A stretch of DNA of 64,000 nt from NCBI RefSeq assembly GCF_001189295.1, contig NZ_CP012159.1, positions 4,168,525-4,232,524 of the forward strand, written 5' to 3'. The first letter of the stretch is position 1. Each line of letters starts with the position of its first letter. The DNA is from Chondromyces crocatus (lineage in GTDB: Bacteria; Myxococcota_A; Polyangia; Polyangiales; Polyangiaceae). Of the stretch, positions 10,521 through 22,330 are shown in pieces. The notes under the pieces were generated by a model. That model saw only the letters and a program-made list of their open reading frames with translations. It did no database searches and was not told the DNA's origin. Both the position numbers and the translations under genes were made by a program.

Positions 10521-11122
10521 CTCCGGGTCAGCCAAGGGTCGCGGGCGTGAGCCCCATGGCGTCGTGAGCCTCCGGTGCGATCATCCCTGGAACTGAATGC
10601 ATTGCGCGCAGACACGGTAATGTCGTGCCAGAGCCAATCGAATTCGTTCATGTTCACGAATGCCATGCATCCGTGCTGACGATGCCGCCCTCCTTCGCCG
10701 CTTTCGTCCCATTCGTACGAATTCCACGGAACGCCGCGCGATCCAGGCCAGCCCGCCACGGACAGGCCTGACGATGCAATCATCACCACCAGCGTACCAC
10801 CGCTTGCCGGATGATCCATCATGCGTCGCGCTGGGCGCGCACGCGTGCGCGTATGGCCCCTTCGCCCGCCGGTTTGCGTCCTTGGCGCTGCGGTCCGGTG
10901 AGACGTCAGAGAAGGTGGGCGCTGGCCATCCGGTCGAAGTTTGCTCGCTCCAGGGCGCGCATCATCTCACCGTGTAGGATAGGACACGGTTGAGGCAGTT
11001 GCTCACTCACCCCAACGCTTTCTGTCTGCGACTGTAGGGTAGGGGAGCATCGTCGGCGTTCTCGCTCCTGGCGAGCCAGCCTTCGCAGGCGCTCACGTCG
11101 ACTCAGGTGCTACACTCGCTTT

Positions 11123-12229
11123 GTGTCGCTGAAGATCGATCAGGACCACGGGCGTTTTCGTCAGATTGTCAGAGGACGAATCCGCCAGAATCTCCGCAAA
11201 TACATCTCGCAGGGGGAGCTCGTCGGTCGGAAGGGGAAGGACCTCGTATCCATCCCCATCCCGCAGATCGACATCCCTCGTTTCCGCTTTGGGGACAAGC
11301 AGAAAGGCGGCGTCGGACAGGGAGAAGGCAACCCTGGCGACCCGGTGAGTGCGGACGACAAGCATCCTGGTCAGGGCCAGGCGGGGTCGGGCGAAGGCGA
11401 ACACATTCTCGAAGTGGACGTCACCCTCGACGAGCTCGCCAGCATTCTGGGCGAGGAGCTCGAGCTTCCCGACATCCAGGACAAGGGAAAGAACAAGATC
11501 TCCAACGCGCACGACCGCTACTCGGGAATCCGGCGCGTCGGCCCGGAGTCGCTGCGCCATTTCAAGCGGACCTATCGTCAGGCGCTCCGCCGCATGATCT
11601 CCAGCGGGACCTTCCGCGCAGAGGCGCCTGTCGTCGTCCCCATCCCCGAGGACAAGCGTTACCGGTCGTGGAAGACGGTCACCGAGCCCGTGGCGAACGC
11701 GGTCATCATTTACATGATGGACGTCTCGGGTTCGATGGGCGACGAGCAGAAGGAGATCGTGCGCATCGAATCCTTCTGGATCGATGCCTGGCTCACCCGG
11801 CAATACAAGGGGCTGGAGTCTCGCTTCATCATTCACGATGCCGTCGCACGCGAGGTGGATCGGGAGACCTTCTTCCACACGCGCGAGTCAGGCGGCACGA
11901 TGATCTCGAGCGCTTACAAACTGTGCGCGCAGATCATCGACAACGATTATCCGCCTGCCGAATGGAACATCTATCCGTTCCATTTTTCCGACGGCGACAA
12001 CTGGTCGATGGACGACACCCTCTCGTGCGTCGACATCCTCAAGAATCAGCTCCTGCCTCGCGCGAACATGTTCGCCTATGGGCAGGTCGAGAGTCCCTAT
12101 GGATCCGGGCAGTTCATCAAGGATCTCAAGGAGCACTTCTCGCAAGACGACCGGGTCGTCCTCAGCGAGATTCGCGACAAGGACGCCATTGTGGGCAGCA
12201 TCAAGGAGTTCCTCGGGAAGGGGAAGTGA
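11123..12229 (+). CDS. yeaH: YeaH/YhbH family protein (DUF444)
   Basis: Conserved C-terminal block [31 protein letters not shown]...[63 protein letters not shown] matches the remembered E. coli YeaH region (MDVSGSM...ETGGTIVSSALKLM...WNIYAAQASDGDNW...). Confidence 0.85.
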
Positions 12230-12240
12230 GCTGAGGCGAG

Positions 12241-13809
12241 ATGAGCAAATTCGCGCTTAAGACAGCCCTGCCACGTTATCTGCGCGCCGAGCAGGAGCGC
12301 ATCGAATCCATCGCCCGCGGATACGGTCTCGATTTCTTCCCGGTGATCTTCGAAATCCTGTCGTACGACCAGATGAACGAGATCGCAGCGTACAGCGGTT
12401 TTCCTAGCCGCTATCCGCACTGGCGCTGGGGGATGGAGTACGAGCAGCTCTCGAAGAGCTACGAGTATGGCCTCTCCAAGATCTACGAGATGGTCATCAA
12501 CAACAACCCGTCGTACGCCTACCTGCTGGAAGGCAACTCGCTGACGGACCAGAAGCTGGTGATGGCCCACGTGTTCGCCCACGTGGATTTCTTCAAGAAC
12601 AACTTCTGCTTCCGCTCCACGGATCTCGACCAGCGTGGAGGCATCGTCGATCCCGTTCGGCGCCCCGGGAAATACGATCCCGATCGACGCTGGATCGACA
12701 AGATGGCCAATCACGGCTCACGAATCTCACGGCATATCGAGCGCCACGGTCTGAACAAGATCGAGGCCTTCGTCGATCAGTGCCTCTCCCTCGAAAACCT
12801 GATCGATCCCTGGGCGCCCTTCAGCGGCAAGCCGCCGCCGAGAGACGAGGAGAGCGAGAACGAGGAGGAGCCGTCGCTCGACGTCTACCGGCTCCGCGCG
12901 AAGCCCTACATGGACGAGTTCATCAATCCGGAAGAGGTGCTCGAAGCGCAACGCAAGAAGCGCCAGGAGCAGAAACGTCCGGAGCGGCGGGTACCCGAGC
13001 AGCCCGAGCGCGACGTGCTGAAGTTCCTGCTCGATCACGCCCCGCTGGAGCGGTGGGAGAGCGACGTGCTCGAGGTCTTGCGGGAGGAGGCGTACTACTT
13101 CACACCGCAGCGCCAGACCAAGATCATGAACGAGGGCTGGGCGAGCTACTGGCACTCCAAGATGCTCACCGAGAAGGTCCTGGATGCCTCCGAGATCATC
13201 GACTACGCGGAAAACAATGCGGGCGTGATGGCCACGGCCCCGGGGCGCCTCAATCCATACAAACTGGGGGTCGAGCTCTATCGCGATATCGAAACGCGGT
13301 GGAACAAGGGGCAGTTTGGTCGAGAGTGGGAGGAGTGTCAGGATCTGGATGCAAAGCGCTCGTGGGACATGCGTCTCGGACTCGGGCGCGAGAAGATCTT
13401 CCAGGTGCGAGCGCTCTACAATGACGTGACCTTCATCGATGAATTCCTCACACCGGAGTTCGTCATCGAGCACAAGATCTACACCTTCGGTTTCTCGGGA
13501 AGAAACGACAGGTACGAGATCGAGAGCCGTGAATTCAAGCAGGTGAAAGAGAAGCTCCTCTTTCAGCTGACGAATTTCGGTGACCCCTACATCCGCGTGG
13601 TCGACGCCAATTACGCGAATCGCGGGGAGCTGTTGCTGGAGCACCAGCACGGCGGTGTCGACCTCCGTGCCGATTACGCCAGGGAGACGCTCATTGCGCT
13701 GGTTCGAGTGTGGAAGCGGCCCGTCGGAATCGCGACACGATTGGAGAATAAGCCGGTGCTCCTCCGGTATGACGGCAAAGAGCACTCGATGACGCCATTC
13801 AAACTATGA
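12241..13809 (+). CDS. spoVR: SpoVR family protein
   Basis: N-terminal [41 protein letters not shown] is the SpoVR hallmark. It directly follows yeaH, the usual operon order. Confidence 0.85.
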
Positions 13810-14260
13810 TTCGGGGGCTCCATTCGGCCTGTGCGGGCACCACGATGCCGCCCGTGAGGCGTCGTTTCACCATGGTCATGAGGTCAGTTCCTCCGCAGAT
13901 CCTCGTGGCGTCCTTGTGGAAAGCCACCGGGACACCGGACCTGAGCCACGTCGCGAGAAGCAGGCCGTTTGGAAATGAGGGCCGATATGGACGCGCTCCC
14001 AGGTTCATGTGAGCAAGATGCCTACATGCTTCCGTGAGTAGTGTCAGGTGTGTTGCTGGGGATACATTGTGGCGTGATGTGTGGCATGCTTGGTGCCTTC
14101 GGACGTGCCATCAAACCGTTCTGGCTCACAGCGGAGCGCGCAGCCGCATGCCGGAATCCGCGCGACACACTCGACGTGGCGACCCTGAACCGGGTAGCCT
14201 GTCCCGGTGCCCTGCCCCGAAGCTGACTTCCCACCGGGGTCGCTGTACACCGAGGCATTG

Positions 14261-14833
14261 ATGTCCGGCTCGAAGCGCTCCGATTCTGCTCTGACGATGC
14301 GCCCACCGCCCCTGACGGCCGAGTGTGGCTTGATCATCAACACCAGCTTCTCAGTAACTGGATTCGGAAAGCGGTGGACTCACTGTCACCAGCTTGCGAA
14401 CTACCTGGCCAGGTACGCCAGTGCGAACGAGAACGATCCGGAACGCACCTCGACGCTGCTTTCCACATTCTTCAACGAGCTTCTCGAGGCGATCTACCGG
14501 AATCATGCGCGCCGCGGGTTGATCAATATTACCTTCGAACGACGGCTCGATCGTGTTTGCGTCAAGGCCGAGGTGCCCGTCGACGAACAGAGTCTCGGCT
14601 TCTACAAGCGGACGATAGAACTCGCTTCGAATCCCGAACTCACGGCCTGGTACCGGGAGCGTCTGGAGAATGACATCTCCGAAGAGGATGCCGGCGCTCT
14701 CGGCCTTCTGGAGCTGACTGTGGTGTACGGAGCGCAGATCGCCATTCATGACGCACCCGGTCCTGACGGTAATGGTCGTCAATCCATCCAACTCTGGGTT
14801 GAATTCCCTTATTCGGAGCTCGACGAAGTATGA
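14261..14833 (+). CDS. HATPase-like Ser kinase of a partner-switching module (RsbW/SiaB-like), paralog A
   Basis: N-box-like FNELLEAIYRNHA and G-box-like GALGLLEL. Paralogous to the 18560 and 20519 proteins. The ORF is open from 14207; start is uncertain (14261 or 14297). Confidence 0.5.
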   Translation: MSGSKRSDSALTMRPPPLTAECGLIINTSFSVTGFGKRWTHCHQLANYLARYASANENDPERTSTLLSTFFNELLEAIYRNHARRGLINITFERRLDRVCVKAEVPVDEQSLGFYKRTIELASNPELTAWYRERLENDISEEDAGALGLLELTVVYGAQIAIHDAPGPDGNGRQSIQLWVEFPYSELDEV

Positions 14834-16065
14834 GTGTTTCGCTCGCGCCCGACTCCCAACTCCCCCCGTCTTCGGCGTCAGAGGGGGCATCCTGGCGTTC
14901 GTCGGTCAGCTTCAACATCAGGGTGAGTGAGCAGGAGCAGGAGGTCGCCTTCACCGGCATGCTCCGGCCCTTCGTCGCGGATCACATGAAGGCGATCCGG
15001 GCGACGCTGGAGACCGCGGCGAAGAATGCGCGTGGCGAGCTGCAGCTCGATTTCAAGCGCCTGAAGTACATGAACAGCGTGGCCTTCCTCGAGATCAATC
15101 GGTTCATCCGATGGGCCGTCGAGGCCAGGCCGGATCTCAAGATCGTCCTGATCATCTCCAGCGTCATCCCCTGGGCGATTCGCAAATTCCAGGTGATCGC
15201 GGAGCTGTATCCGAGCGTCTCCGTCGTGGTGTACGACAAGTCGCTGTATCCGATCCAGCAGGTGATCGAGGACGAGGATTTCGTCAACGTTCTCCGCACG
15301 CAGGAGAAGATCGTCTGGGAGGTCGAGCGAAAGATCATCTCTCGACACGGCCTGCGCCCCGGGATGCGGGTCGCGGACATCGCGTGTGGAATGGGAGATT
15401 TCGTGCTCCGTGTGCAGAAGGAGTTCAACCCGGAATACATCATCGGGGTGGACCATTCTCGTGCCTTCCTGCGCCATGCGCAGTCGCACGCAAAATCCCT
15501 GGGCCTGGAGAACATCGAGTATCAGTACGGAGATGCCGCTGCACTGCTGCTACCCGACGACTCGTTCGATTTCGTCAGCTGCAGGCTGGCGCTCCAGGTG
15601 TTCCACAGGCCCGAGCAGATGGTCCAGGAACTCTATCGAATCTGTCGACCAGGTGGGCGAGTCTATATCACCAATGAAATGATGTCGTGCGTGACCGGCT
15701 ATCCTGATCAAGCTTCGATTCGTCACGGGTATGATCGCTTCCTGGAGCTGAGTAGAATGGTAGGGATGGACTTCGACATCGGGGTCCGGACCATGAAGAT
15801 CTTGAAAAACGCAGGGCTGGAAGAGGTCAAAGGGGATCTCATCGGGATCGACAACATGAACAGCGATAGAGCCTATTTCGCCAAGGTGGTGGAAAGCTGG
15901 ATCGTTTCATCGGGGGACGTTGCCCGATCCGCAGAAGCGGACCCGAGAATCCACGAACAGATCGCCGCCGGCCTGAGGGCACATGTCGAAGCGATCCTCG
16001 GTGAGGGAGGCTATGCATCCTGGCCAATCTATGCAGGCTCCGGCCGAAAGCCGGTCCGGCCCTAG
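14830..16065 (+). CDS. Fusion protein: N-terminal DUF1987/SiaC-like domain plus C-terminal class I SAM-dependent methyltransferase
   Basis: N-domain VAFTGMLRPFVADHMKAIRATLE...LQLDFKRLKYMNSVAFLEINRFI is paralogous to the other two DUF1987-like domains in the cluster. C-domain has SAM motif I VADIACGMGDFVL and post-II CRPGGRVYI. The start overlaps the upstream stop (ATGA). Confidence 0.6.
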   Translation: MSVSLAPDSQLPPSSASEGASWRSSVSFNIRVSEQEQEVAFTGMLRPFVADHMKAIRATLETAAKNARGELQLDFKRLKYMNSVAFLEINRFIRWAVEARPDLKIVLIISSVIPWAIRKFQVIAELYPSVSVVVYDKSLYPIQQVIEDEDFVNVLRTQEKIVWEVERKIISRHGLRPGMRVADIACGMGDFVLRVQKEFNPEYIIGVDHSRAFLRHAQSHAKSLGLENIEYQYGDAAALLLPDDSFDFVSCRLALQVFHRPEQMVQELYRICRPGGRVYITNEMMSCVTGYPDQASIRHGYDRFLELSRMVGMDFDIGVRTMKILKNAGLEEVKGDLIGIDNMNSDRAYFAKVVESWIVSSGDVARSAEADPRIHEQIAAGLRAHVEAILGEGGYASWPIYAGSGRKPVRP

Positions 16066-16153
16066 CGAAGAGGACGGTTGACTCTGCTTGCATGGTGGAG
16101 CAGCAGTGATGGAAGGCTGGTCACTCAGATCTTAATGCAGGAGAGCTGATATC

Positions 16154-18535
16154 GTGTCGGCAAGGACGCATGATGAGCCTCAGCGAAAAGGGCCTCGCGG
16201 CCTGTTCGCCGGGCTGAAGAAATTCAATACGAAGTTCCTGCTGGTGACGGGGCTCAGCGTGATTATCGGCGCTGTGCTCAATATTGTCGTCGCGCGTCAG
16301 GGTATTCATTCGCTCAGTCAAAAATCTGCCTATGAAATCGAGAGTGGACTCAATACTGCGAACCGCGAATACATAACCAATCATCTCGCCGACAAGGCCC
16401 AGCAGACCAACTTCGTCCTTGGCCAGGCGTATGCGGATCTCCAGACCTTCGCCGACATCGTCCAGGAGATGGTCGATCACAAAGGGGAGCTCCAGCCAGT
16501 CCTCGATGCTGCTGCGGCGCTGCCGTTCTTGCACGACAAGCTCGAGTACAACGCCAAGGGCGACTGGTATCAGAATAAATCCGACGAGCAGACCGGGGTC
16601 GTGGTCTGGGGATACAATGGCAACAAGGGGACCATCGATCCCGCCGTCCAGAAGGCCGTGGACGACACTGCGCTCCTCGATCTGATTCTCCCCTCCTTCA
16701 AGCGACGTGGTTCCGAGAAGCTCCAGATCTATCTGGTAGGGCCGAAGAGCCACCCGTTCACCCGTGTCGCCGACTATGCCGACATGGGGACGAGCTTCGA
16801 CGCGACCTATCCTGGCCATAACGAGAAGAACTGGTACGACTTCTTCTTTCCGAACCTCGCGGAGAGCTGGCAGCAGTGGTTGAAGGACCCTGCGAAGCTG
16901 AAGGCCCTTCCGTCGACCGTCACCGTGACCCCCCCCTATGCGGACGCCGCTGGTGGCGGGATCGTGCTGACGGCCTTCAACCCCATCTGGACCAAGGATC
17001 GGAAAGACTTCGCCGGCGCGGCGGCGCTCGATTTCACGCTCGGTCAGCTCATCGACTCGATCAAGGACGTTCGCCTGGCCCAGACGGGCTTCGCGTTCCT
17101 GGTGCAGTCCGACGGCAACGTGCTCGCCGTGAACGAGTCGGGCGCCACCACGTTGCGCCTCAGCTCCGGCGCGAGCGAGGAGGGCAAGGGCGTCGGCATC
17201 CTGCAGCAGTACCTGAAGAACAGCGGTTCGGAGGCGGTCGCCTCTCTCGTGCTGCCCCAGGATGATCGGATCGACTACCACGAGATCACGATCGAGGGAG
17301 AAATCTACATCATCGCGCTCCAGCGGCTCGCACGCGTGAGCACCTGGATGGATGCGCGAGGCATCGTCCCCGAGCAGTGGACGATGGGCTTCGTGGTCCC
17401 CAAACGCGAAATGTACGCCTCGCTCGTCGCGGCGCAGTCGGCGATCGAGCAGAGTCGTACGAGCATCGTCACGATGCAGATCCTCATCACGGTGGGGCTG
17501 CTCGCGGCGCTGTTGCTCGGTGTGTATCTGGTGTCCCGCCGGATGACGGGGGCGCTGGTCGAACTCTCCACCGGCGCGACGCGCATGCGGGAAGGCGACT
17601 ACAGCGTCCGGATCGATGTCCAGTCCGAGGACGAGATCGGCCAGCTCGGCGTCGCCTTCAACGAGATGGCGAGCGAGATCGAGGCCTACACGAACAACCT
17701 CGAGGACCTCGTCAGCGAGCGGACCCGCGCCCTCGAAAAGGCGAACCAGGAGATCAGCGAGCTGAACGCGAAGCTGGCCCAGGAGAACATTCGCCTGGGT
17801 GCGGAGCTGAACGTGGCCCGTCAGCTCCAGCTGATGGTGCTCCCGGCGCCTCAGGAGCTGCAGGAGATTCAGGAACTCGACATCGCGGGGTACATGGCTC
17901 CTGCCGACGAGGTCGGTGGAGACTATTACGATGTGCTCCAGAGCGACGGAATGGTGAAGATCGGTATCGGCGACGTCACCGGTCACGGCCTGGAGAGCGG
18001 CGTGCTCATGCTGATGGTGCAGACCGCCGTCCGCACCTTGCTCGCCACCAATGAGCGCGACCCCAAGAAGTTCCTGAGCATCGTCAATAAAGTCATCTAT
18101 CAGAACATTCAGCGCATCAATTCGAACAAGAACATGTCGCTGACGCTTCTGGACTACAGCGACGGCTCGCTCAAGCTCACCGGGCAGCACGAAGACCTGA
18201 TCATCGTTCGCGCCGACGGGAGCCTCGAACGATTCGACACGATGGCGCTCGGGATGCCCATCGGGCTGGACCTCGAGATCGAGGACTTCATCTCCGATGC
18301 CGAGATCAAGCTAGAGGCGGGGGACGTAGTGACTCTGTTCAGCGACGGGATCACGGAAGCCGAGGATACCGCTGCCCAGCAGTACGGGATCGACCGCCTC
18401 TGCGACGTGATCAGCAAGAACCATCAGTGCTCATCCAAGGAGATCAAGGACGCGATCATTGAAGATGTGTTGGCTCATATCGGATACAACAAGGTCTATG
18501 ACGACATCACCGTGCTGGTCATCAAGCGGGTGTGA
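16154..18535 (+). CDS. Membrane sensor protein: periplasmic domain, HAMP, PP2C/SpoIIE Ser phosphatase (RsbU/SiaA-like)
   Basis: TM1 LLVTGLSVIIGAVLNIVVA, a periplasmic domain of about 430 aa, TM2 ILITVGLLAALLLGVYLV, HAMP (DEIGQLGVAFNEMASEIE), a coiled coil, then PP2C motifs (DIAGYMAPADEVGGDYYDV...IGDVTGHGLESG...FSDGITEA). Confidence 0.85.
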   Translation: MSARTHDEPQRKGPRGLFAGLKKFNTKFLLVTGLSVIIGAVLNIVVARQGIHSLSQKSAYEIESGLNTANREYITNHLADKAQQTNFVLGQAYADLQTFADIVQEMVDHKGELQPVLDAAAALPFLHDKLEYNAKGDWYQNKSDEQTGVVVWGYNGNKGTIDPAVQKAVDDTALLDLILPSFKRRGSEKLQIYLVGPKSHPFTRVADYADMGTSFDATYPGHNEKNWYDFFFPNLAESWQQWLKDPAKLKALPSTVTVTPPYADAAGGGIVLTAFNPIWTKDRKDFAGAAALDFTLGQLIDSIKDVRLAQTGFAFLVQSDGNVLAVNESGATTLRLSSGASEEGKGVGILQQYLKNSGSEAVASLVLPQDDRIDYHEITIEGEIYIIALQRLARVSTWMDARGIVPEQWTMGFVVPKREMYASLVAAQSAIEQSRTSIVTMQILITVGLLAALLLGVYLVSRRMTGALVELSTGATRMREGDYSVRIDVQSEDEIGQLGVAFNEMASEIEAYTNNLEDLVSERTRALEKANQEISELNAKLAQENIRLGAELNVARQLQLMVLPAPQELQEIQELDIAGYMAPADEVGGDYYDVLQSDGMVKIGIGDVTGHGLESGVLMLMVQTAVRTLLATNERDPKKFLSIVNKVIYQNIQRINSNKNMSLTLLDYSDGSLKLTGQHEDLIIVRADGSLERFDTMALGMPIGLDLEIEDFISDAEIKLEAGDVVTLFSDGITEAEDTAAQQYGIDRLCDVISKNHQCSSKEIKDAIIEDVLAHIGYNKVYDDITVLVIKRV

Positions 18536-18559
18536 CACAGGGGGAGACTGGGCATCACC

Positions 18560-19477
18560 ATGAGCGAAATCATCGGCGTATACTCACTGGATGATTCGTT
18601 CAGCGAGCACATGTCGCTGACGCTGTATCCGGATTCATTTCCGGTGAGGTGGAGCCTGTGCAACCTGACCGCGAACTTCATGGCGGAGTATTTTGGCGAG
18701 CTGTTTCCCGATGCGGACAGCGACGACAGGATGCTGAGCCGTGACGAGATTTCCGGCGCGGTAGGGTACGTGCTGAATGAACTTGTCGAGAATGCTGTCA
18801 AGTTCAACATGAACGGGGAGATCACGGTCACGGTCGGGCTGGGGCGAGAGGATCTGGTATGCCTCGTCAGCAATCAGATCCAGAACGCCTCCGTTCCTAA
18901 CTTGCGGCAGAAGCTGCTGGAACTCACACAGGAAGATCCTGGTGAACTCCTGCGTCGCCAGGCCGAGGCGAACTTCGAGGACGCGGAGAACACTGGTTCG
19001 GGGCTTGGCTACCTCATCATCATGAATGACTATGGGGTGAGCCTCGGTTGGAAGCTGGATCCGATCACGTCGAGCAGCTTCTGCATCAAGACAATGGCAC
19101 GGATCCCGATTCTGAACGAAAGGTCGAGAATGGAAATCAAGGGTGGAAACTACCGGGTTTGGTATGACGCGAACGAGGTGACAGTGTATTTCGAGGGGAT
19201 TCTTCGCCTGGGCGGCCCCCAGGAGTATGCCCCCATCGAGACGCTGCTCGACAAGGTCCTCGAGAGCAACCCGAGCAAGATCACTCTGGACCTCCGGGCA
19301 CTGAACTTCCTGAACAGCTCCGGGATCAACGTCCTCTACAAGTTCGCCATTGCGACGAGGAAGAAGGGCGAGCTGCAGCTGCTGGTCCGGGGCTCGAAAA
19401 ACGTACCCTGGCAAGGGAAGTCGCTACCCAACCTCAAGAAATTCAACCAAAACTTCGAGCTTACGCTTGTCGACTGA
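18560..19477 (+). CDS. Fusion protein: HATPase-like kinase domain (paralog B) plus C-terminal DUF1987/SiaC-like domain
   Basis: N-box VLNELVENAVKFN and G-box GSGLGYLII. C-terminus VTVYFEGILRLGGPQEYAPIETLLDKVL...ITLDLRALNFLNSSGINVLYKF matches the domain at 21053 (LTFEGAIRIDNPYRYLSGYLDEL...MDFVKMRFCNSNGFYVIMDIV). Confidence 0.6.
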   Translation: MSEIIGVYSLDDSFSEHMSLTLYPDSFPVRWSLCNLTANFMAEYFGELFPDADSDDRMLSRDEISGAVGYVLNELVENAVKFNMNGEITVTVGLGREDLVCLVSNQIQNASVPNLRQKLLELTQEDPGELLRRQAEANFEDAENTGSGLGYLIIMNDYGVSLGWKLDPITSSSFCIKTMARIPILNERSRMEIKGGNYRVWYDANEVTVYFEGILRLGGPQEYAPIETLLDKVLESNPSKITLDLRALNFLNSSGINVLYKFAIATRKKGELQLLVRGSKNVPWQGKSLPNLKKFNQNFELTLVD

Positions 19478-19553
19478 GCTTGAGTTCGGTGAAGTGTCTC
19501 CTTCAGCCCTGGCGGCCTTCGGGCATCGCCAGGCCGAGCGATGACGGCACCCC

Positions 19554-20528
19554 ATGAACACTGCGACCCGACCCAGGGGCGACGTGCAGAGGCAAACCAA
19601 CCTGGATGCCATTCGGTCGGTCGTCAAAGATCGATCGGCATGGGGAGATCTGCTCCGTGAGGAGAGACGCTTCATCGAGTTCATGGAGCGCTGTAACGCG
19701 CTGCTCGATTACGTCGACAAGCTGAAAGCCGATTTCGATGACCTCTCGTTGGTGCACGAGGCGATCCTCGAGCATGCGACGAGCATCGAAAACGAGATGG
19801 AACGGTACAACCGGGAGATCGGCGAAGATCTCGCTGTCGCACAGCGGGTCCAGCGCGCCCTTCTCCCGGATGCCGGCCACTCGTTCCACTCGGTCTTCGA
19901 GGTCGCCATCCACCACCGGCAGCTCGCAGAGGTGGGGGGTGACTACTACGATTTCTTTTCTTTTCCCGATGGCCGCTATGCCGTCGGGGTTTACGACATC
20001 TCCGGTCACGGCGTCTCCTCGGCGCTGATCATGGCCTTTCTGAAGTCGCAGTTCGCGCATGCGACGAAGGATCTCAGGGATCCGGGCGCGATCGTCGATT
20101 GGGTCAACCGGAGCGCTTACTCGTTCTTGCGCGAGGTCCGACGGTACTCGACGGTCAACTTCGTCGTGTTTACGCCCAGTTTTCTGCGATACGTTTCCGG
20201 CGGTGGCTATGGGTTGCTGGTGCGACGAGGGGCACCGCGCCACTTCAATCGGGTGAGTAACTTCATCGGATTGCGGCAGAAGCCGTTTCAGGAGTTCGAG
20301 CTGCCATTCGAGTCGAACGATGTGCTGGCGCTCTACACCGACGGCATGTTCGAAGCTCAGGGAGCCAACGGCGAGTCGTACTCCGTTCAGCGGCTCAACG
20401 ACATCGTCGTGAAGCACTGCGAAGAGCCGGTGCAGACGATCCTCGATCGGTGCATAGAAGACTACACGCGCTTCCGAGTGGCCGATACTGACGACATCAC
20501 GCTGATCATTCTGCGAAGGTGCGCCTGA
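19554..20528 (+). CDS. Cytoplasmic PP2C/SpoIIE-family Ser phosphatase
   Basis: AQRVQRALLP...GGDYYDFFSFPDGRYAVGVYDISGHGVSSALIMAF...LALYTDGMFEAQG. Confidence 0.8.
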   Translation: MNTATRPRGDVQRQTNLDAIRSVVKDRSAWGDLLREERRFIEFMERCNALLDYVDKLKADFDDLSLVHEAILEHATSIENEMERYNREIGEDLAVAQRVQRALLPDAGHSFHSVFEVAIHHRQLAEVGGDYYDFFSFPDGRYAVGVYDISGHGVSSALIMAFLKSQFAHATKDLRDPGAIVDWVNRSAYSFLREVRRYSTVNFVVFTPSFLRYVSGGGYGLLVRRGAPRHFNRVSNFIGLRQKPFQEFELPFESNDVLALYTDGMFEAQGANGESYSVQRLNDIVVKHCEEPVQTILDRCIEDYTRFRVADTDDITLIILRRCA

Positions 20529-21019
20529 TGAAGCCGGAGATCAATCATTCGCAGACGTCTGTGGGGGCGTCGTTTTCGATCTCCCCCATCAATCACATCA
20601 CGAGTGATGTGGCGGGGCTTCTGGCGAACTTCCTGGATGCGCTGCTCGTCAGGTTCTACCCACGGCGGATCTGTCAGAAGGTCAACGTCGTGGTGACCGA
20701 GCTGGTCACCAACGTGATCCAGCACGCTTCCGATCGGGAGGGGGAGGTCCGGCTGGATCTACGGATAGATCCGAGTGGGCTCGTCATAAAAGTCTCCAAC
20801 AAGGTGTCGCTCGATGAATACCGGACCGTCAAGGCGGTCTTTGACGAGATTTTCGCCGCGGAGGATCCCAGGGAGCTTTTCGCGAGGACGGTACGGGGGC
20901 GCCGTATCGACAAGCAGCGAGGTGGGCTGGGGCTCATCCGGCTTACCGCGGAGAACAAGTTCCATCTGTCGACGCAATACGTCGACGGGGTGCTCGTCAT
21001 CCAGGCGACTTTCCCGTGA
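20519..21019 (+). CDS. Anti-sigma-factor-type Ser kinase (RsbW/SiaB-like HATPase), paralog C
   Basis: VVVTELVTNVIQHA (N-box) and QRGGLGLIRL (G-box), about 165 aa. Overlaps the upstream stop by 10 bp. Confidence 0.7.
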   Translation: MRLMKPEINHSQTSVGASFSISPINHITSDVAGLLANFLDALLVRFYPRRICQKVNVVVTELVTNVIQHASDREGEVRLDLRIDPSGLVIKVSNKVSLDEYRTVKAVFDEIFAAEDPRELFARTVRGRRIDKQRGGLGLIRLTAENKFHLSTQYVDGVLVIQATFP

Positions 21020-21052
21020 AAGGTTCGGTATGCTCTCGATGAAAGGTTGCGT

Positions 21053-21463
21053 ATGAAGACCCTCAGCTATGGCGAGATCACGGACGGTGGGCTGAGTGTC
21101 TTTCAGTCCGTTGCCAGGCTCGAGGATGACGGGCGTCTGGTGCTGACCTTCGAGGGGGCAATTCGCATCGACAATCCCTATCGCTATCTGTCCGGGTATC
21201 TGGACGAGCTGGCGAGAGTGCTCCCGCAGTATCCGATCAACGCGACGACGATGGATTTCGTCAAGATGCGTTTCTGTAACTCGAATGGCTTCTACGTCAT
21301 CATGGACATCGTGGATGCCGTCTACAATCTGGTGCCCGGCCCGGTGGTCGTGCGTCGAATCTCGGATGACGATTGGCAGCACGAGACGCTCCCGATTCTC
21401 CTCAACCTGAGCGAGGAGCACATCGCGGCGCGGACGACGTTCGACGACGTGAAGGAGCCGTGA
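21053..21463 (+). CDS. Stand-alone DUF1987 (SiaC-like) partner-switch protein
   Basis: About 136 aa. LVLTFEGAIRIDNPYRYLSGYLDELARVL...TTMDFVKMRFCNSNGFYVIMDIVDAV fits my recollection of P. aeruginosa SiaC (LSMQGDSYPENSYELF...LELDLRLLYLNTSSIKAMMDIL). An in-frame TTG at 21047 is an alternative start. Confidence 0.55.
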   Translation: MKTLSYGEITDGGLSVFQSVARLEDDGRLVLTFEGAIRIDNPYRYLSGYLDELARVLPQYPINATTMDFVKMRFCNSNGFYVIMDIVDAVYNLVPGPVVVRRISDDDWQHETLPILLNLSEEHIAARTTFDDVKEP

Positions 21464-21697: not shown

Positions 21698-22330
21698 GTG
21701 GCCGTCCCGCTCTCCCCACTCCCCGACAGGTCGAGTATCGACGCAATCGTCGAGACCATTATCTATCTCTACACGGAGAGCCGACGCCTCACGAAAGGGA
21801 TGGCGAGCTCATTCGGGCTCACTGGCCCGCAGCTGACCATTCTGAAGCTCCTGGAGTCGTTCCCCGATCTGTCTCTGTCCACGCTCTCCGAGCGGATCCA
21901 CGCACAGAACAGCACGGTCACGGGGATCATCGACCGCATGGAGCGCGAGGGGCTGGTCAGGAGAGAGCGCTCTCGTGTCGACCGCCGCGTCGTGTTGCTG
22001 CGTCTGAGCGAGAAGGGAGCCAGGCTCGCGCAGGAGATCCAGGTCGAGCCGATGGAGATCTTCCGTCAGGCGCTCTTCCGGCTCGACGCTGACGACCTGC
22101 ACGACCTCCTGCGGATCCTCATGAAGCTGCAGCGGGAGGTGCTGCAAGGGGTCGCCCAGTCGGGCAGCAAGCTCCCAGCACTCCCCGCGCAGGCGATGCA
22201 GGCCCTCGCGTCGGTGCCCGAGGTCGCCGCGACGCCGCAGGGGAGCGCAATGGCCGGGGATGGAGCGGAGTCGACCAAGGTGACGAAGCGTCGCGTACGT
22301 CCCGCGTCGACGAGCCGAAAGGAGCCGTGA
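21698..22330 (+). CDS. MarR family transcriptional regulator
   Basis: Winged-helix block LTGPQLTILKLLESFPDLSLSTLSERIHAQNSTVTGIIDRMEREGLVRRERSRVDRRVVLLRLSEKG. The true start may be internal. Confidence 0.75.
   Translation: MAVPLSPLPDRSSIDAIVETIIYLYTESRRLTKGMASSFGLTGPQLTILKLLESFPDLSLSTLSERIHAQNSTVTGIIDRMEREGLVRRERSRVDRRVVLLRLSEKGARLAQEIQVEPMEIFRQALFRLDADDLHDLLRILMKLQREVLQGVAQSGSKLPALPAQAMQALASVPEVAATPQGSAMAGDGAESTKVTKRRVRPASTSRKEP

Follow-up and report, generated by a model that had tools for sequence, protein, structure and literature searches.

The seven genes of the operon

An operon of seven genes, here called g1 to g7, occupies positions 14261-21463 of a 64,000-nucleotide stretch of Chondromyces crocatus DNA (contig NZ_CP012159.1, positions 4,168,525 to 4,232,524), which is referred to below as the window and supplies the coordinates. 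As the first-pass annotation of this DNA had stated, the seven genes are co-oriented; they lie on the plus strand, and only short gaps or overlaps separate neighbours. They very probably form a partner-switching system of the family to which the Bgr operon of Sinorhizobium meliloti and the cyanobacterial slr1658/slr1659 genes belong. The second gene encodes a STAS-like domain joined to a class I S-adenosylmethionine (SAM)-dependent methyltransferase, which may be what the system controls. The features are as follows:

g1, 14261..14833, plus strand: predicted slr1658-like pseudokinase of the GHKL fold, identical (100%) to CMC5_031630 of C. crocatus Cm c5, the strain from which the window comes; counterpart of BgrS by position
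g2, whole gene, 14830-16065, plus strand: STAS-like domain and class I SAM methyltransferase in one polypeptide
g2, N-terminal domain (amino acids 27-135), 14908..15234, plus strand: slr1659-like domain of the STAS fold, with Ser83 at the canonical phosphorylation site
g2, C-terminal domain (amino acids ~150-411), 15277..16065, plus strand: class I SAM-dependent methyltransferase carrying a lid at its C-terminus; the BgrT counterpart
g3, 16154..18535, plus strand: membrane sensor phosphatase (transmembrane segment, dCache, transmembrane segment, HAMP, PP2C/SpoIIE); counterpart of BgrU
g4, whole gene, 18560-19477, plus strand: W-type kinase-like domain fused to a V-type STAS domain
g4, N-terminal half (amino acids 1-185), 18560..19114, plus strand: slr1658-superfamily kinase-like domain; counterpart of BgrW
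g4, C-terminal half (amino acids 191-305), 19130..19477, plus strand: slr1659-superfamily STAS domain with the motif LNSSG and a predicted phospho-Ser253; counterpart of BgrV
g5, 19554..20528, plus strand: cytoplasmic PP2C phosphatase with a SpoIIE match, the second of the system
g6, 20519..21019, plus strand: small GHKL kinase-like protein of the anti-sigma type; its N-box reads E..N and its G2 box GGLG
g7, 21053..21463, plus strand: divergent STAS-like protein with the motif CNSNG, its Ser present

The letters follow the gene order of the S. meliloti bgr operon: S denotes g1-like proteins, T the STAS-methyltransferases, U the PP2C phosphatases, W the slr1658-type domains and V the slr1659-type domains. 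In these terms the window reads S T U W-V U W (V), with the sensor PP2C sitting between two pairs. The start codon of g1 was chosen from an alignment of orthologues, and its stop codon overlaps the g2 start in an ATGA. The reading frames of g5 and g6 also overlap, and g6 probably starts at the ATG at 20528. Upstream of g1, 450 nucleotides of non-coding DNA lead back to a SpoVR gene. A scan for promoters and terminators returned nothing beyond shuffled expectation.

The two PP2C phosphatases that had been called from the sequence are both there, one in the membrane and one in the cytoplasm. The Pfam matches of g3 are SpoIIE (3.9e-37), HAMP (8.5e-14) and dCache_1 (2.3e-10), and its sequence shows each of the four PP2C metal-binding motifs; homology identifies it as a putative periplasm-sensing PP2C phosphatase. 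The SpoIIE match of g5 has an E-value of 3.8e-28. This protein is 52% identical to a small, divergently transcribed PP2C found upstream of the core genes in Nannocystis (locus L044), and many non-myxobacterial loci have an upstream PP2C in a similar position.

One predicted pseudokinase and two apparently competent kinase-like domains

The kinase-like domains were compared with the NCBIfam model slr1658_superfam (NF047703), and the STAS-like ones with slr1659_superfam (NF047705); the cut-off of each is 100 bits. Amino acids 15-181 of g4 score 153 bits against the former (E 5.5e-45), well over the cut-off, while g1 (58.9 bits, E 4e-16) and g6 (45.4 bits, E 6e-12) are significant matches that stay under it. 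In Pfam, g6 matches HATPase_c_2 (5.4e-7) and g4 has weak matches to DUF6272/HATPase together with STAS (3.5e-5); the scan found no match for g1 or g7. Three kinases had been announced in the first-pass annotation, and three GHKL kinase-like domains are indeed present (g1, the N-terminal half of g4, and g6), but the first of them is predicted to be a pseudokinase.

This prediction comes from residues that are held firmly on one side and lost on the other. In W-type domains the N-box residues E74 and N78 occur in 82/82 members, and the G2 glycines (SGLG box) are retained. The S-type proteins do not have the N-box Asn in a single one of 76 members, the position being taken by A (20), V (20), T (13), M (7), L (6), Y (5), I (4) or F (1), and by A in g1 itself; their G2 glycine box is degenerate in the orthologue alignment. 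The two features expected of an active GHKL protein kinase, the N-box Asn and the G2 glycine box, are thus wanting in g1. GHKL proteins without the N-box Asn cannot bind Mg-ATP productively, and because this residue is missing g1 is predicted to be unable to hydrolyse ATP. The N-terminal half of g4 and g6 both look kinase-competent. In the slr1658-type domains, however, a near-invariant Asn (81/82; amino acid 105 of g4, window ~18872) stands at the canonical adenine-binding Asp of the GHKL G1 box, and the DxGxG glycines are absent, which suggests an atypical nucleotide pocket. The S. meliloti W-type member is nevertheless reported as the BgrV kinase.

In Polyangiaceae, the g1 orthologues share an acidic C-terminal tail, FP[FY]xE[LV]DE[VLIA], which is conserved among them (window 14800-14833). 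That it could serve as a docking peptide or as a methyltransferase substrate is pure speculation.

The switch domains belong to the STAS superfamily

The cluster had been described as SiaABC-like, with three domains of the DUF1987/SiaC family. Three switch-type domains do exist, in an operon of the PP2C/GHKL/STAS type, but they are slr1659-like STAS domains and the system falls in the slr1658/slr1659 family instead of SiaB/SiaC. The SiaC family model (PF09345) matches none of the seven proteins in Pfam at E<=0.1, the N-terminal domain of the protein starting at 14830 included, and with this the narrow claim made for that domain fails. Against slr1659_superfam, amino acids 191-300 of g4 score 145.8 bits (E 5e-43), over the cut-off, with amino acids 27-131 of g2 (42.2 bits, E 8e-11) and g7 (21.3 bits, E 2.5e-4) under it. 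The g7 protein is 27% identical to the C-terminal half of g4 (E 1.4e-6), and its Sorangium orthologue matches the V profile built here at 5e-6; its assignment as a STAS-like protein is weak, and is the weakest of the seven.

For g2, a profile of 15 orthologous N-terminal domains was aligned by hhalign with bona fide slr1659 domains, and the two matched end to end with a probability of 98.6% (E 6.9e-16). Taken singly and run against Pfam at E<=10, the same 15 domains matched STAS_2 in 5/15 cases (best 2e-6), STAS in 2/15 and SiaC in 1/15 (0.08). A sequence search of the PDB with the slr1659 profile retrieved the anti-sigma antagonists RsfB (2e-3) and SpoIIAA; with the profile of the g2 N-terminal domain it gave marginal matches only (MlaB 0.06, SiaC 0.94). 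The predicted model of this domain consists of beta-alpha repeats with a predicted local distance difference test score (pLDDT) of ~90. The AlphaFold model of g4 (pLDDT 83, predicted template-modelling score 0.78) is matched in Foldseek by both chains of the UsfX-RsfB, SpoIIAB-SpoIIAA and RsbW-RsbV complexes (8ih8, 1til, 6m37; also 1l0o), its N-terminal half pairing with UsfX, SpoIIAB and RsbW and its C-terminal half with RsfB, SpoIIAA and RsbV; SiaC comes at ranks 21-38 for the STAS half. On these alignments, profile searches and predicted structures, we assign the switch domains to the STAS superfamily and the kinase-like domains to the RsbW class of GHKL proteins, SiaC being a distant cousin.

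The three kinase-like/STAS sets are only 21-27% identical among themselves. This rules out the recent triplication implied by calling the cluster triplicated, and the sets are old and very divergent.

Two other arrangements were met among the relatives. One protein of 372 amino acids (P0391) joins an slr1659-like N-terminal domain to Haem_oxygenas_2, an iron-containing redox enzyme, and has no methyltransferase; enzyme-tagged slr1659 domains are therefore not confined to methyltransferases. Tandem double-STAS proteins such as P0274 also occur.

A degenerate phosphorylation site next to an intact methyltransferase

The serine of the LNSSG motif is present in V-type domains without exception (81/81). 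Among 83 orthologues, the aligned column of the T STAS-like domain holds N 51 times, S and H 13 times each, F 5 times and M once; C. crocatus has Ser83, which aligns with the phospho-Ser of SpoIIAA and of BgrV-type domains, Sorangium and S. meliloti have Asn, and Nannocystis has His. We infer that the T domain is generally not phosphorylatable. Since the N-box Asn occurs in 0/76 S-type proteins and the Ser in 13/83 T proteins, against 82/82 and 81/81 for the corresponding residues of W and V, the g1/g2 pair would be a paralogue of the W/V pair that has lost its catalytic function and acquired an enzyme.

The enzyme itself is well kept. As the first reading of the sequence had held, a switch-like domain is covalently fused in g2 to a class I SAM methyltransferase: Methyltransf_25 matches at E 5.6e-20 over amino acids ~170-285, and the protein has the Rossmann fold, motif I (DxxCGxG; VADIACGMGDFVL, amino acids 181-193), an acidic residue after beta2 and a GDA motif. 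Loss of the SAM-binding motifs on alignment would have told against this call, and these residues are kept in 83/83 T orthologues. The invariant positions comprise D183, G187, G189, D208, H209, G234, D235, R252, Y279 and E283, and those outside the SAM site include R252, Q256, Y279, E283, W357 and W398. Because both the SAM-binding and these further residues are invariant, the g2 methyltransferase looks functional.

These data bear on the mechanism proposed in the first-pass annotation, in which the fused domain is itself the phospho-switch, a kinase phosphorylating it, a PP2C reversing the reaction and the methyltransferase being gated directly. Ser83 of C. crocatus g2 lies where such a mechanism needs it, and the operon supplies two apparently competent kinase-like domains (g4 N-terminal half and g6) and two PP2Cs. 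Set against this, Ser is found in only 13/83 orthologues (N51, H13, F5, M1) of an enzyme whose SAM-binding residues are all invariant, the cognate neighbour of g2 is a pseudokinase throughout its family (76/76), and the DUF1987 match is wanting in all seven proteins. With so few acceptor serines and a g1 family devoid of the catalytic Asn, a phospho-switch on the fused domain is not conserved, and direct phosphorylation gating is unlikely as a family trait; as an account of the whole system we consider it highly improbable.

The fold of g2 is of the type seen in small-molecule or peptide methyltransferases, and the closest solved relatives of its methyltransferase domain include LahSB, a peptide C-terminal carboxyl methyltransferase. 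Databases label such proteins quinone methyltransferases. The UbiE/MenG models give g2 68 bits where 158 are required (TIGR01934) and 68 where 216 are required (NF001244), and no pathway context accompanies the gene; with scores so far under the curated cut-offs the label is unsupported, and a role in quinone biosynthesis was rejected. In the S. meliloti record CP090105.1, the S-type protein (locus L008, 6459-6977; 172 amino acids, no methyltransferase domain) is labelled 'ubiquinone biosynthesis methyltransferase UbiE', probably an annotation error inherited from the neighbouring gene.

The S-T-U-W-V core across phyla

Relatives of g2 are common: more than 100 are full-length at 90% clustering, chiefly in Myxococcota, and in a survey that took a single genome for each species, 437 genomes carried one. 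Component profiles built here were run over 80 of these loci. In essentially every complete locus, from four phyla, the order S-T-U-W-V was recovered; the hosts are Polyangiaceae, Nannocystaceae, Hyphomicrobiales, metagenome-assembled genomes (MAGs) of Gammaproteobacteria, and Chthoniobacter. S and T are always adjacent and frequently overlap. The architectures are:

Polyangiaceae: S T U W-V U W V; as in the window, W-V is a fusion and there is an additional trio
Nannocystaceae and other Myxococcota: S T U W V
One rhizobial group, 18 loci: GGDEF-EAL S T U W V
Other Hyphomicrobiales, Gammaproteobacteria MAGs and Chthoniobacter: S T U W V preceded by a small, divergent PP2C

The cyclase gene (GGDEF-EAL) occurs in 18/80 loci, all of them rhizobial. 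That the C. crocatus cluster has no GGDEF gene had been noted from the sequence, and a tblastn search with the rhizobial GGDEF-EAL protein confirms it: neither the 64 kb window nor the myxobacterial loci yielded a GGDEF/EAL homologue. The rhizobial orthologues of the operon do have such an effector partner. Being confined to these 18 loci, the cyclase defines the Bgr subgroup and not the wider family. Clustering of the flanking open reading frames in the 80 loci showed no effector conserved across lineages; all that emerged was the second PP2C and promiscuous Ser/Thr kinases. GGDEF-EAL, MarR and AraC neighbours are lineage-specific, and it is S and T that accompany U-W-V most constantly over the four phyla.

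This distribution also bears on whether the methyltransferase is an input and not an output. It could sense SAM, S-adenosylhomocysteine or a substrate, with its STAS-like domain mimicking V and titrating the W kinase or g1, and with the target of W/V lying elsewhere. STAS domains joined to sensor modules are the usual input devices, as in RsbR and YtvA; the Sorangium version of the operon includes a PAS-GAF-STAS gene, rhizobia have a separate GGDEF-EAL output beside T, and the T domain resembles V yet lacks the acceptor Ser, much as a pseudosubstrate would. An input function is nevertheless unlikely in our view, as R252, Q256, Y279, E283, W357 and W398, all outside the SAM site, are invariant in the manner expected of a working active site, and in most lineages the operon encodes no further effector.

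Several loci depart from the common layout. In three Nannocystis loci (L044, L046 and L052) the large sensor PP2C is missing between T and W and only the small divergently transcribed PP2C is found, with an extra STAS gene beside it in 2/3 of them. In a distant Myxococcota MAG (L006, 5788-7450), S-T-U-W-V is immediately preceded by a canonical STAS / HATPase_c_2 / SpoIIE trio, whereas the trio of Polyangiaceae (g5-g7) lies downstream of the core; in that MAG the core is followed by a GAF-PAS protein and a hybrid histidine kinase.

Comparison with known systems

The closest described relative is an operon of six genes on S. meliloti pSymB, which we take to bear the locus tag SMb20447. It encodes in order an EAL (GGDEF-EAL) protein, a protein of 172 amino acids, a class I SAM methyltransferase, a SpoIIE protein, an ATP-binding protein that NCBI names 'slr1658 superfamily regulator' (W), and a hypothetical protein of 112 amino acids. 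The C. crocatus proteins are identical to their counterparts at 26% for g1/S (E 4.5e-17), 41% for g2/T, 43% over 776 amino acids for g3/U, 36% for the N-terminal half of g4 (W) and 50% for its C-terminal half (V). By its layout, we are highly confident that this operon is the published bgrRSTUWV, a hexacistronic system whose original account is that of Baena et al. 2019 (Environ Microbiol 21:3379, doi 10.1111/1462-2920.14624). The order S-T-U-W-V and the motif pattern are the same in both: a pseudokinase-like S, a STAS-methyltransferase T, a dCache-HAMP-PP2C U, an slr1658-type W and an slr1659-type V. As bgrT is part of that published operon, and the same five-gene core with it, the architecture cannot be called undescribed, as the first-pass annotation had it. 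The two operons differ in that S. meliloti has the GGDEF-EAL gene (BgrR), which the Chondromyces cluster lacks, whereas Chondromyces has W and V fused in one protein, the extra PP2C/kinase/STAS trio g5-g7, and a downstream MarR gene. This collinearity, the slr1658/slr1659 matches, the hhalign result and the Foldseek hits of g4 together make it very likely that the cluster belongs to the Bgr/slr1658 type of partner-switching system.

Papers that cite this work report that the phosphatase BgrU and the kinase BgrW jointly govern the phosphorylation of BgrV, a STAS protein, and through it the cyclase BgrR (PMC7647112; PMC8457831), and that bgrV encodes a repressor of the diguanylate cyclase BgrR (PMC13438883). 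Our literature search found no paper on a STAS-methyltransferase, on DUF6272, on a DUF1987-methyltransferase or on the role of the S/T pair. To our knowledge, no role has been established for S and T in either S. meliloti or Chondromyces.

In cyanobacteria, the slr1657-slr1660 region contains the same superfamilies (NF047703, NF047705) in the layout pair 1 / PP2C / pair 2. A cyanobacterial MAG locus (L004) reads slr1658-like, slr1659-like, PilJ-PP2C and fused slr1658-slr1659, its second pair being fused as in g4. Unlike g1/g2, the first cyanobacterial pair has retained both the N-box Asn and the serine of LNSSG and is free of a methyltransferase, and the phosphatase sensor is PilJ where Chondromyces has dCache-HAMP. 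Disruption of slr1658 in Synechocystis leads to poorer recovery from iron limitation and to a ~1000-fold increase in pgr5 (PMC7555055; PMC6525291); both papers cite the original Slr1658 work (Zer et al. 2018 Plant J 93:235).

It is conceivable that the output is encoded in trans or works through transcription, by way of a sigma factor, a cyclase or the MarR regulator encoded downstream, and that g1/g2 are accessories outside the switch proper. Transcription is altered when slr1658 is lost, pgr5 rising ~1000-fold (PMC6525291); a MarR gene lies 3' of the operon in both Chondromyces and Sorangium; and the S. meliloti V protein is reported to target the cyclase BgrR (PMC8457831; PMC13438883; PMC7647112). 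Yet S and T are the steadiest neighbours of U-W-V over four phyla while GGDEF-EAL, MarR and AraC come and go with lineage, and S and T share ancestry with W and V, so that they should share the binding network of the latter. We therefore regard such an output as quite unlikely.

The SiaABCD system of Pseudomonas aeruginosa is alike in its logic: a STAS-related protein binds an enzyme directly and so controls it, and whether this protein is phosphorylated depends on a HAMP-PP2C phosphatase and a small kinase (PMC8457831; PMC7647112). Its family models score low here, with 125.5 bits for g3 and 58.2 for g5 against SiaA (NF038263, cut-off 700 bits) and 19.9 for g4 against SiaB (NF038262, cut-off 85). 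Its co-operonic GGDEF cyclase SiaD has no counterpart in the Chondromyces cluster, and where SiaC is phosphorylated on Thr68 the predicted acceptor in g4 is the Ser of LNSSG. The RsbU/RsbV/RsbW and SpoIIE/SpoIIAA/SpoIIAB modules provide the best structural matches of the g4 halves, and have the phospho-Ser in the same loop and phosphatases of the PP2C/SpoIIE type. The Chondromyces operon differs from them by having no sigma factor, by the added pseudokinase/STAS-enzyme pair, and by the Asn in place of the G1-box Asp in its W-type domain.

A proposed model of docking-controlled methylation

A model can be proposed by analogy with these systems. Homology indicates that in g4 a kinase domain of type W is joined to a STAS domain of type V bearing the invariant phospho-Ser, and that g5-g7 make up a second, cytoplasmic branch of phosphatase, kinase and STAS protein. 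If the system works like BgrU/BgrW/BgrV, phosphorylation of g4 Ser253 and of g7 would be set by the ligand state of g3 together with whatever controls g5. As g1 and g2 are degenerate and S and T strictly adjacent, g1 is most likely a pure binding partner, a kind of 'anti-methyltransferase factor' that would dock on the STAS-like domain of g2. Unphosphorylated V-type STAS domains would then compete for g1, or the W domain for the STAS-like domain of g2. The methyltransferase would in this way be released or captured by protein-protein partner switching, and not through its own phosphorylation.

Taken as a whole, an S-T-U-W-V partner-switching module with a docking-controlled methyltransferase is the best explanation of the data, and we give it a probability of about 0.5. 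Its central step, docking-based switching with the methyltransferase as the output, is put forward tentatively from the sequences, as plausible but short of probable. Four points weigh against the model. In the only studied relative, bgr, the reported target is the cyclase and not the methyltransferase. Gene order and domain content are the grounds for equating the S. meliloti loci (L008 and L009) with bgrRSTUWV. The chemistry of W-type kinases is atypical, given the Asn at the G1-box Asp in 81/82 members. Finally, C. crocatus g2 does carry a phosphorylatable residue, and with Ser83 present direct phosphorylation is possible in this species.

A broader version would make S-T-U-W-V an ancient, multi-phylum device whose ancestral output was SAM-dependent methylation, S holding or releasing T according to the phosphorylation state of W/V, and BgrR being a late rhizobial add-on. 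This extension is doubtful.

Significance

Known targets of partner switching are sigma factors, secretion and cyclic di-GMP cyclases. Over ~437 species genomes, the one component that stays constant, apart from the phosphatase/kinase/STAS trio, is a STAS-methyltransferase that is uncharacterised and comes with a pseudokinase of its own; the cyclase studied in S. meliloti is restricted to one lineage. What is new here is a Bgr/slr1658-type operon that lacks the cyclase, has its W and V domains in one protein and carries an added PP2C/kinase/STAS branch. A constant S-T-U-W-V core over phyla alongside a lineage-specific cyclase, as read from gene order and profiles, is a modest, testable advance. 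If the methyltransferase were the primary effector, partner switching would gain a new class of output, the unexplained bgrS and bgrT genes a function, and the signalling chain downstream of cyanobacterial Slr1658 a lead. Should the ancestral-methylation version hold, no earlier partner-switching system would have had a methyltransferase as its effector, and the kinase and sequestering roles of RsbW-type proteins would here be divided between two paralogues. Whatever the effector, the 'quinone/UbiE methyltransferase' annotations are corrected, and the Bgr, slr1658/1659 and myxobacterial clusters, which have been named separately, are joined as one family.

Genomic surroundings

Directly 5' of the operon, at 11123-13809, lie DUF444 (YeaH-like) and SpoVR (YcgB-like) genes, in synteny with Sorangium So ce56; an open reading frame at 11107-12234 that overlaps this region in another frame is spurious. 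Downstream of g7 the MarR gene occupies 21698-22330, after a gap of 234 nucleotides. In Sorangium, an additional PAS-PAS-GAF-STAS gene (L001, 16623-18747), absent from Chondromyces, stands between the g7 orthologue and the MarR gene. The guanine-plus-cytosine (GC) content of the operon is 59.2%, about 10 points below the 69.2% of its surroundings in the window; the values are 61.3 vs 70.1 in Sorangium (L001, 9447-16588) and 62.2 vs 69.5 in Polyangium (L029, 9400-16600). The rhizobial operon, at 59.7%, is near the Chondromyces value, and the upstream DUF444/SpoVR genes are equally low (59.7%). The low GC content of the operon may reflect an old horizontal transfer or an effect of the gene class.

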